DNA of 64,000 bases from Candidatus Collierbacteria bacterium GW2011_GWB2_45_17 (GTDB lineage: Bacteria > Patescibacteriota > Microgenomatia > UBA1400 > MFAQ01), in the NCBI GenBank assembly GCA_001001485.1, contig LCKO01000001.1, positions 76,517 to 140,516 of the forward strand, in the 5' to 3' direction. Of this stretch, positions 30,001-33,000 are shown one piece after another (positions within the stretch are counted from its first letter, which is position 1; each line of letters starts with the position of its first letter). The position numbers are program-made.

Positions 30001-33000
30001 AATAAATATAGAAAATAATCAATCGTTATTTTGAGATGTAGCGGGATTTGGCCTATTGGCCAGAGTGAGTGCTACGCAGATACACTATTATTCACGATCT
30101 TGATCAAAAATATGATCAATATCACTCCATCGATTTGCTTTTCCTGTTTTAAAAAAGCTTTTTGGATTCTCTTGTATATATCTAATCTCATCGTCCTGCA
30201 GCTCTAGTCCACACATTGGACACTTCATATACCTATATGGAAATTGTAGGGTTCCGTCTGGATTCCAGTCATAATCGATACCAATAATCAACCACAACGT
30301 ATCATTCTTACATGACGGACACTGACAATCTTCTATAAATGCATCTACATCATCAGGACCAAGCACGACATTTGTCTTTGAGAACTCTTTGATTTGCCCA
30401 GGAGTAAGTCTTTCATATTTGTCCTCAAAAAAAGTTATCTTTTTCATTAAATTTCCTTCAAATAGGTCTATCATGCTTTTGGTGACCTTCTCGAGTCTTT
30501 TCCAGAGAGATACATCAAGTGAAACAATCTTTGGTGAGGCAATGTGTACAGGTCTTTGGGCTAATGGTTCTAAAAACGAATACATAAACGGAAAAATATC
30601 CTTCGCCAGCAACAGATTAATATCGTCTAAATTGATATTTATCTCGTGATGTACAACTTCATTCCGCAGTTTAGATAATTCTAATAGTTTATCCATAATT
30701 GCAGATAAATCTACAAATTGGTTCAATCTTTTTAAGATAATTACAAAATTGGCTGTTCTCAACTCTTGTTTATTATTTTTTGTTCTATTAGTTGTTTTTC
30801 CCTCTAGTGAAAAAATTTTGATAACTTGTATACCTTCGTCATCAATTCGTTCCAAAATTAAAGCAGGGCAGATTCCCTTTAAGTATTCCTTAAATATTAA
30901 TTCAATAGAAATTTGAGTTTTGATCAAACAACTAACTATTCTTCGAGCATCGTTCCCAGATTCTAAAAATTCTTTTAAGCCTTCCTCTAGCAAATCAACA
31001 GAATCATACCCATATGATGTGTGAGTTTCGTCTCCGAACCTAGTTTTTTTGTGTCGATATACGCCTCCCATTAAAGTAATATAACATCCCCGGTCGCTTG
31101 AAGTACGGAGTAAATAAAATCCACTTATTCAGCGACTTTTCTAGATTTCTTCACTCATATCAAGAATATCAACGGGCAAGTCATCCTCAACTCCTTCATC
31201 AAGCATTTTTATTGCTTTCCAAAACTCATCAGGAATTTCGAGACTCCCTATCTTTGTTGTACCTTCTGGAACTGTAACTAATTTAGCAAGACTGAATCCT
31301 GGTTGTTCACACTCAACTATTTCTCCTGGTTTGTCATTTTCTTTCAGAACGTAGAGACACATTAATTCTCCCTGGTGAACTTGCAGGGAAAAACTAACTT
31401 CCTCAATCAAAGAATCATATTTATATACTGCTAGACCATCGGGGGTAATGTGGAACAATAAAAATTTTCCTTGTTGGATGTTTTCGTCAAAAACATGATC
31501 TGTCTCTACATATTGAACGGGTGTTCTGTGTCCTGGCATTACTTCAACTAAGGCCCCATCAACTATTTCATCAGAGACATCTTCATATTTCCAAGTTTTG
31601 AATCTAACTCCTTTAATTTCTTCCAAAACCGTCCACTCACTCGCAACTATTGGTCCAGAAAATTCCTCATTGGCAATAATGCCTCCATTTGGACTCTCAA
31701 AATCAATTCCGTGTTCTTTGGTTGTCATGGCACAAATTATACTTCAATTGGGATACTCAACAACAATTTGGGAATAATTGTTCTATATCCGATAATATAT
31801 TTATATTAAATTTTTGCGTTTTCTGTCGCTTTTTGAAAGATAAACAGATTATTGTGGAATGGGAAAAGCCCTTCGCATCGCTCCGCGCGTGGGCGGGCGC
31901 GCGGGCGACCTCCCCGAATGTGGGCGAGATTTCCCAGAGTGTTGGCGGTTTACGAAAAATGTCGAACTTCATTTGATTAGCTCGGCCTTCGGCCTCGCTT
32001 GCTCCGGCGCGGCGCCCCCACCCGCCGCGCCTCCGCTATTTTTTGAGCGCGCGATTTTCTCGCCCTTCGGGCGAGCGAGGAAGAAATTTTTAGTTTTCCT
32101 TGCCCCGTCCGCCCACGCGCGGAAATAATTTTAGCTCCCACAATAATATCAGAATTAAATTACAAATTTAATTCGAATTCATAATTTCTGATACCTTGTT
32201 ATTTTCTTCTATTAAAAAGATCCTAGTAAAATTATGATTAATTCCATTAATAGCTGTTTTAAAGATATTAGCGTCAGCCAAAGGATAATTGTTTATAACA
32301 CCTAGCCATTTTTCACCATTATTGCTATTTATTTCTTTGAGCTTTGACTCTTTTTCTTTAATTATTTTGTCTAGTATTAATTGCGTTTGCTCTTGAATGA
32401 CAATAATGGGGTTTTTGTCTGTTATTGCTCCTATAATTGCTTTACGCCTGTTGTCACCATGACTAATTTCATGAACTTCAACGATTTCTCCATAAATTTT
32501 CAAGTTTCTATTTCCAGGTGGCTTATTTTTTCTTATTAACTTATCCAAAGTTCTCACGAGACCTTTTTTGAATTTATTGAAATTTTTTACAGGCACTTTG
32601 AAAACCAACATTATAGATTTTCCTTTAGGAACCAGATTTTTGTATTTATTATCTAGTTGATTGCAAAATTTAATAAGGGTTTCCGTAGAAGTTCTTTTCT
32701 TGCTTTTCTCGTTTTCATCTTTATAAATAGATTCTGCCGTGGTAATTTCTAATGGGGTTTTATTACCACTACTATCGACACAATAGTAATCTGGAGGATC
32801 TCCACCCGGTACTATTTCAAAAGGTGGATATGAGATTGATTCAAGATAAACCTTTATCGACTTTTTCGCGTATTCTTCATCAACTCGCATCATAAATAAT
32901 GATTCGTCCTTAAACTGAAGACATTGTGTATAAAAATCATAATCATAAGTAGTTTATCATATAGAAGTATATCTGTTTGCACTATCACAATCCCCATTGA

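Follow-up and report, generated by a model that had tools for sequence, protein, structure and literature searches.

A stand-alone HEPN–zinc-ribbon protein, candidate defence ribonuclease, beside a conserved cupin-fold gene in a Collierbacteria genome

We analysed a window of 64,000 nt from Candidatus Collierbacteria bacterium GW2011_GWB2_45_17 (contig LCKO01000001.1, positions 76,517-140,516, forward strand), concentrating on two neighbouring open reading frames (ORFs) that we call gene A (30088..31071, 327 amino acids) and gene B (31141..31728, 195 amino acids). Both ORFs are found at the positions reported in an initial annotation of this DNA, lie on the minus strand and are co-directional, with an intergenic spacer of 69 nt between them (31072..31140, minus strand). 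The initial annotation had proposed that A and B constitute a two-gene toxin-antitoxin or abortive-infection module. Conservation among homologues and a predicted structure supported the identification of A as a true HEPN protein carrying a Cys4 zinc ribbon towards its C terminus, and indicated that B, which adjoins A but lies outside the HEPN element, is a lineage-conserved protein with a predicted cupin fold. The main correction to the initial annotation is that the system is one gene and not a pair. By analogy with characterised HEPN proteins, A is probably a stand-alone defence or abortive-infection RNase.

Results

Gene A encodes a predicted HEPN domain and a C-terminal Cys4 zinc ribbon

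The sequence LSKLRNEVVHH, previously highlighted as a HEPN signature, is present in A. The motif by itself is weak evidence for a HEPN domain, because a plain R.{4,6}H regular expression matches A three times; the HEPN assignment was therefore drawn from homologues and structure. In an alignment of 33 homologues sharing 16-46% identity with A, residues E57, R115, R136, H141, C251, C254, C284 and C287 were invariant and N137 was at least 90% conserved. Sequence and conservation thus place the Rx4H motif at R136-N-E-V-V-H141, followed by H142 (30649..30666, minus strand; R136 codon, nt 30666-30664; H141 codon, nt 30651-30649).

An AlphaFold (AF2) model built on the 33-member alignment had a predicted local distance difference test score (pLDDT) of 87.7 and a predicted template modelling score (pTM) of 0.83. 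It showed a helical domain spanning residues ~24-172, a long helix at 187-220, a beta domain at 241-292 carrying the four cysteines, and terminal helices. The HEPN domain (residues 24-172; 30556..31002, minus strand) is made of helices 24-37, 42-67, 109-116, 126-141 and 148-172, with an insert at 68-108. Its predicted all-alpha, four-helix up-down core and the Rx4-6H motif at the catalytic position are the features that define the HEPN superfamily, and comparison of the predicted structure indicated a resemblance to HEPN toxins, Csm6, AbiA, AbiV and HepS. The initial annotation had made its proposal dependent on such a fold, which the model of A displays.

Profile searches pointed in the same direction. 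PADLOC models matched by A were PDC-S64 (E 1.3e-7, residues 24-166), Csm6 (E 1.7e-4) and CARF_HEPN (E 6.6e-4), whilst Pfam returned weak matches to RiboL-PSP-HEPN (E 0.008) and, below threshold, DUF4145 (E 0.11). The hidden Markov model (HMM) alignments to Csm6 and RiboL-PSP-HEPN cover the Rx4H region. A search of PDB sequences with A and with its profile gave only insignificant zinc-ribbon matches and an ApeA match; NCBIfam and PHROGs contained nothing meaningful for A or B, and Foldseek comparison with viral structures returned no match at E <=1e-3.

The HEPN domain is followed by a basic helical linker (residues 180-231; 30379..30534, minus strand), assigned from the predicted secondary structure and containing the long helix. 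Beyond it, the model and the conservation of C251/C254 and C284/C287 define a beta-rich Cys4 zinc-ribbon domain (residues 241-292; 30196..30351, minus strand), with strands at 241-249, 259-270, 273-283 and 290-292 and weak matches to Zn_Ribbon_TF and TFS. The CxxC...CxxC zinc ribbon described earlier is therefore present, and its four cysteines are invariant in the family. The calculated isoelectric point (pI) is 9.1 for residues 176-240 and 4.3 for residues 241-327. The acidic C-terminal tail contains W315, a residue shared by all of the 9 closest homologues, and the end of the tail is rich in D and Y in homologues. The HEPN and zinc-ribbon assignments are both confirmed by the invariance of the motif and the cysteines across homologues together with a confident model.

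A belongs to a rare family without a Pfam or NCBIfam model

A full HMMER search of 1.84 billion representatives (50% clustering) identified 60 family representatives at E <=1e-3, 33 of them at E <=1e-10. Most members among the matches listed are ~270-330 amino acids long, the remainder being shorter fragments. It was the full HMMER search that revealed the family: a word-indexed search of 5.8 billion clusters with A found two relatives only, a 91%-identical fragment and the homologue P0002, and a word-indexed search with the 33-member profile returned only 4 proteins. P0002 aligns with A end to end (45% identity, 99% coverage). Searches of the GTDB species representatives, IMG/VR and GenBank phages gave no close relative of A; one distant homologue is encoded as a stand-alone copy on a Streptomyces record of a plasmid collection. 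The A family is rare, lacks a model in both Pfam and NCBIfam, includes no named protein, and is found here in a bacterium of the Candidate Phyla Radiation (CPR).

B is a lineage-conserved protein with a predicted cupin fold

The product of gene B is strongly acidic, as initially described. Its pI is 4.24, with 41 D+E against 14 K+R, making it the most acidic long ORF of the window, below the 5th percentile of 4.9 (62 ORFs of >=150 amino acids). Searches identified 32 homologues at 54-93% identity, and all of the labelled ones are from Collierbacteria. The GTDB species representatives contributed five further B loci: one from Collierbacteria, one from a 'Patescibacteria group' and three from metagenome-assembled genomes labelled 'uncultured Pseudomonadales'. 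With the tools used, members of the B family were detected in Collierbacteria-type Patescibacteria alone.

No sequence match to B was detected in Pfam, NCBIfam, PHROG, PADLOC or PDB. Its predicted structure contains a double-stranded beta-helix barrel, and cupin-type sugar isomerases are among its closest folds. The canonical cupin motif 1 is G-x5-H-x-H-x3,4-E. At the equivalent position B carries G66-H-R-T-P-V-Q72-x2-E75-x2-H78-x3-E82, in which Q72, E75, H78 and E82 are invariant and H-x-H is absent. The family alignment has 34 invariant columns and includes a second motif, E139-C140-E141-x-P-G-F.

The surroundings of B are conserved in Collierbacteria: with respect to B, an MgsA-type AAA ATPase gene (39309-40463) and a tRNA-Gln occupy the same flank as in relatives, and a methyltransferase is also on this side in both the window and relatives. 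Based on the model and its distribution, B is best described as a lineage-conserved cupin-fold protein. It resembles no known antitoxin, and we know of no antitoxin family with a cupin fold.

A and B are adjacent genes but not a module

The reading in which acidic B neutralises a HEPN toxin A draws on the orientation and spacing of the two genes, on the extreme acidity of B and on the recurrence of the adjacency in one further locus. The distribution of the two families argues against it. Loci fetched for comparison are numbered L001 onwards. When their six-frame ORFs were scanned with the A-family HMM, no match fell in any of the 12 independent loci that carry B, and the only matches among the loci scanned were in L001, L002, L010 and L011. 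The gene located 3' of B encodes an SLT transglycosylase in L003-L006 and a protein called FeS_assembly_P by Pfam in L007, where it is followed by a KsgA/Erm-like methyltransferase; opposite-strand genes are found at this position in L008 and a 77-amino-acid ORF in another relative.

Reciprocally, no B-like neighbour was found at the A-family loci examined. The upstream neighbours of A homologues were compared with each other and with B, and no similarity was detected. [quoted passage not shown] No partner gene shared across the A family emerged: in the homologues examined, the upstream genes all differ or are absent. In L017, the protein encoded upstream of the homologue P0036 (260-754, plus strand; 164 amino acids) has no family match and carries its own Rx4H-type motif, RNWLAH; this sequence suggests a second small HEPN-like gene beside P0036.

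The sole recurrence of the B-A adjacency is in L002 (ENA ERZ28564140, scaffold_8099). This contig comes from the same population, with 99.6% DNA identity to the window, and it is for this reason not independent evidence for the pair. In L002, an 8-bp deletion (corresponding to window 30613..30620, minus strand) frameshifts A after ~codon 150, leaving ORFs of 182 and 128 amino acids, whereas the visible part of B (113 amino acids, to the contig end) is unchanged. The deletion may be a natural allele that has lost function, or else it reflects an error of assembly; the frameshifted allele suggests that A is costly or dispensable. A scan of the 69-nt spacer for promoter and terminator consensus sequences found neither, the overall count being near the shuffled expectation.

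Since the pair is not conserved beyond L002, the two-gene toxin-antitoxin or abortive-infection reading is to be dropped, and we regard a role for B in neutralising A as highly improbable. Its cupin fold, its distribution across Collierbacteria and the absence of A near B in 12 loci led us to reject B as the antitoxin. The initial annotation had itself proposed conservation of the gene neighbourhood as a check, and it is on this point that its module fails. B is merely adjacent to A, a conserved lineage gene without a functional link to it.

The L002 allele also raises the question of whether what this lineage retains of A is a non-functional, decaying remnant. Such decay would be in keeping with the apparently truncated state of the adjacent SNase and small methyltransferase ORFs. 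On the other hand, the A ORF of the window is intact and full length, retains every invariant residue of the family and aligns along its whole length with P0002. We consider that decay is a distinctly improbable explanation for the gene in the window.

Genes beside A homologues include defence-type functions

The defence or toxin role initially suggested for A is plausible from the genes found beside its homologues. P0093 (L010 524-1411) adjoins a full-length DISARM DrmD SNF2 helicase (L010 3699-6827, minus strand; PADLOC E 8e-303); an unannotated 498-amino-acid protein is also encoded beside P0093. P0043 adjoins a Dcm methylase and Vsr, P0002 adjoins an HNH protein matching PADLOC models of type II restriction endonucleases, and P0038 (L022) is near YhcG, an integrase and a DUF6788/NTP_transf_8 pair.

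Two further observations concern these neighbourhoods. In L018, a 500-amino-acid protein (2-1501, minus strand) encoded beside Vsr and an A-family homologue is an unusual fusion of a LexA DNA-binding domain, an S24 peptidase and a C-5 cytosine DNA methylase. The DUF6788 and NTP_transf_8 pair occurs at L020 5013-5629 and L022 323-1301, ~0.6-2.7 kb from P0068 and P0038, the two pairs sharing 37-39% identity. Such a pair might act in trans as an MNT-like partner, or might be there by chance as a defence-island neighbour; the window contains neither this pair nor an NTP_transf_8-like ORF.

The same contexts bear on the possibility that A is a host housekeeping or regulatory RNA-processing enzyme, outside any conflict system, for which Las1, Swt1 and MtlR are non-toxic HEPN precedents. 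The lack of an obvious immunity gene is compatible with this explanation. However, the family is sparse and patchy, with 60 clusters among the 1.84 billion representatives, spread from Patescibacteria to the Streptomyces plasmid record. A is missing from the remaining Collierbacteria loci scanned, has a low GC content and is represented by a loss-of-function allele in a sister strain, and its homologues adjoin DISARM, restriction-modification-type and integrase genes. A housekeeping role is therefore quite unlikely in our assessment.

A is related in architecture or sequence to known and candidate single-protein HEPN defences

The initial annotation regarded A as a possibly undescribed family. 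This holds in so far as Pfam and NCBIfam contain no model for it; its architecture, however, is that of the validated HEC-08 system, and the candidate system PDC-S64 is a homologue. Fusions of HEPN domains and zinc ribbons were already listed in several families in the 2013 HEPN census (PMC3710099).

HEC-08 (Hma-embedded candidate 8; Payne et al.) is a single gene encoding an N-terminal DUF3644 HEPN domain and C-terminal zinc-ribbon-like domains, and its defence activity requires H128, the histidine of its Rx4-6H motif (bioRxiv 10.1101/2024.01.29.577857). A is likewise a single gene with a HEPN domain followed by a Cys4 ribbon and no conserved partner. Unlike HEC-08, which contains several zinc-finger-like domains, the Patescibacteria protein has one Cys4 ribbon. 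Within the family, 5/33 members matched Pfam DUF3644 (best E 3e-4), 3/33 matched PADLOC DUF3644 and 1/33 matched HEC-08 (E 0.0037).

PDC-S64, a single-gene candidate of PADLOC-DB v2, is the best sequence-level relative of A. PDC systems are candidates predicted through 'guilt by embedding' (bioRxiv 10.1101/2024.01.29.577857), and the DrmD gene beside P0093 fits this embedded-in-defence-systems origin. The PDC-S64 model PDLC05059 was matched by 16/33 family members and PDLC05058 by 5/33 (best E 8e-14). A itself spans profile positions 10-139/339, and the matches of the best members extend to 211/339 or 237/305. On this sequence evidence A is homologous to PDC-S64 and is not assigned to it.

RAZR/PD-T7-4 (Zhang et al., Nature 2026) is a single protein in which a Cys4 ribbon at the N terminus precedes a divergent DUF4145 HEPN RNase at the C terminus. 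It acts by abortive infection and requires its HEPN R/H residues; the zinc finger is the specificity or sensor module, and RAZR becomes active on assembling around rings of phage portal or recombinase protein (PMC13017515). As a solo HEPN protein with a zinc ribbon, controlled without an antitoxin, RAZR offers a functional model for A. A has the opposite order of domains and a sub-threshold DUF4145 match, so it is not a member.

In contrast to the HEPN-MNT systems (type II/VII toxin-antitoxin; HEPT/MntA, for example SO_3166-SO_3165), A has no adjacent MNT gene and is flanked by the cupin gene and an SNase fragment; it is also ~2.5 times longer and carries extra domains. An MNT-type partner was sought and none was found in the window.

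A lies in a variable hotspot beside a recombinase island

The GC content is 33.8% for A and 37.9% for B, against ~0.39-0.47 in most 1-kb bins of the window, in agreement with the initial description of both genes as AT-rich. The nuclease fragment reported next to A was also a fair description: the SNase ORF (29583-30005) matches only positions 34-104/107 of the Pfam SNase profile (E 4.9e-10). Local gene order downstream of B differs between the window and L007, the closest B-bearing relative fetched (B identity 88%). The KsgA/Erm-like methyltransferase gene (window 24722-25504) starts ~740 nt after B in L007 and 5.6 kb after B here, A being included in this distance. Gene A is an AT-rich accessory gene within a variable hotspot of the Collierbacteria chromosome, directly 3' of B; its accessory status follows from its low GC content, its sparse homologues, the 5.6 kb, against ~740 nt in L007, between B and the methyltransferase gene, and the frameshifted allele in the same population.

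Upstream of B, a perfect 81-nt direct repeat (31829-31909 and 36984-37064) brackets a ~5.2-kb serine-recombinase island. The recombinase ORF (35602-37158, plus strand) contains Resolvase, Recombinase and Zn_ribbon_recom domains, passes through the right copy of the repeat and ends inside the tRNA-Gln encoded on the opposite strand (37096-37169, minus strand). Long direct repeats are not the usual outcome of serine-recombinase integration. The island also encodes an S26 signal-peptidase-like protein, a 248-amino-acid protein with a sub-threshold DUF5677 match (34356-35102, minus strand; E 3e-4) and a 241-amino-acid protein without a meaningful match (32168-32893, minus strand); neither of the latter two is a recognised defence gene in PADLOC. 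Since A and B are outside the 81-nt repeats, A was ruled out as a part of this island.

This setting is relevant to a further explanation, that A is a selfish addiction toxin whose acidic zinc-ribbon and C-terminal tail mask the HEPN site in cis, stabilising a mobile segment and having no anti-phage role. The charge difference between the basic linker and the acidic C-terminal block, the conserved W315 with the D/Y-rich tail of homologues, and the location of A in a repeat-bounded variable segment beside the island are all compatible with it. Nothing points to proteolytic or other release of a cis-acting antitoxin, however; A is not carried between the island repeats, and the neighbourhoods of its homologues favour defence islands over plasmid-stability loci. 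We consider this explanation unlikely, and note that a cis-inhibited selfish toxin overlaps mechanistically with a stand-alone defence RNase.

Several other repeats were observed in the region. A 93-nt inverted repeat within the island (31943-32035 and 35304-35396) is GC-rich and 100% complementary, with arms 3268 nt apart; it has no Rfam match, and an Rfam scan of 24-39 kb detected the tRNA-Gln only. A GC-rich element of ~55-75 nt is present in three copies (23672-23742, 27361-27429 and 31898-31974) sharing 78-89% identity and located at the edges of variable segments, and a related sequence is found upstream of the L007 homologue of B (L007 16-114). Candidate identities for this element are a degenerate att site, a small mobile repeat and an unannotated RNA. 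A repeat of ~72 nt occurs at 26429-26500, 27768-27840 and 58772-58810, with degenerate copies at 25578-25605 and 30057-30084, one of which is directly 3' of the A stop codon, between the convergent SNase and A genes. Its 28-nt core holds the hairpin GTGCCTGC-TTCG-GCAGGCAC, and it looks like an intergenic element of the repetitive extragenic palindromic (REP) or terminator type. Finally, a 298-nt direct repeat (24422-24719 and 28847-29144, 84% identity) corresponds to two paralogous small membrane proteins of ~98 amino acids (ORFs 24423-24719 and 28722-29144), suggesting a segmental duplication or rearrangement in the hotspot.

Discussion

Collectively, the data presented are best accounted for if A is a stand-alone defence or abortive-infection HEPN RNase, a function that we consider probable by analogy with characterised proteins. 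The solo-gene interpretation follows from the upstream genes of A homologues, which all differ or are absent. The HEPN domain with its Rx4H site, the basic helical linker and the Cys4 zinc ribbon with its acidic tail would form a one-protein effector. By the same analogy, the HEPN domains of two A molecules would dimerise to create a composite R/H active site, which may be kept inactive until infection, the zinc-ribbon and C-terminal module acting as a sensor or regulatory part. Once activated, A would cleave RNA, leading to translation arrest and to an aborted infection. The RNase activity, the dimerisation, the trigger and the outcome of this putative pathway are inferred from characterised HEPN proteins.

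A number of observations weigh against this proposal. It gives no account of how a solo HEPN protein stays harmless, and the L002 frameshift could mean that the gene is decaying and non-functional. Recognisable defence genes were present in about half of the homologue contexts examined, mostly short contigs, and in the window no defence gene was found beside A except the SNase fragment and the separate recombinase island. The links to known systems are also partial: A has no HEC-08 or DUF3644 match at E up to 1, and matches to PDC-S64 correspond to the HEPN domain and, in some members, to the central helical region, the C-terminal third of the profile never being matched, either because the two lack this part in common or because it has diverged too far. 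PDC-S64 is itself only a candidate defence system.

A more specific possibility is that the A family represents a distinct, uncharacterised lineage of sensor-coupled HEPN RNases. In this scheme a structural or replication protein of a phage would be sensed by the ribbon and the acidic, aromatic tail (W315, D/Y-rich), and this recognition would activate the RNase, in a RAZR-like manner with the domains in reverse order. This extension of the analogy is speculative, and we hold it to be rather unlikely.

Single-protein HEPN RNases with a zinc ribbon have already been described and partly validated, and the gain is in this respect incremental. The practical value is negative: B, the supposed acidic 'antitoxin', is a conserved cupin with no relation to A, and annotations should not list it within a module. 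The invariant E57, R115, R136 and H141, together with the four cysteines, provide a ready plan for mutagenesis. If A is active, a rare HEPN-zinc-ribbon family without a Pfam model would join the single-protein RNase defences HEC-08, RAZR and PDC-S64, and such a defence would be placed in a Collierbacteria genome of the CPR, where immune repertoires are poorly known. If the sensor-coupled mechanism were true, A would be among the first mechanistically tractable abortive-infection effectors of the ultra-small Patescibacteria, a group poor in recognised defence systems.

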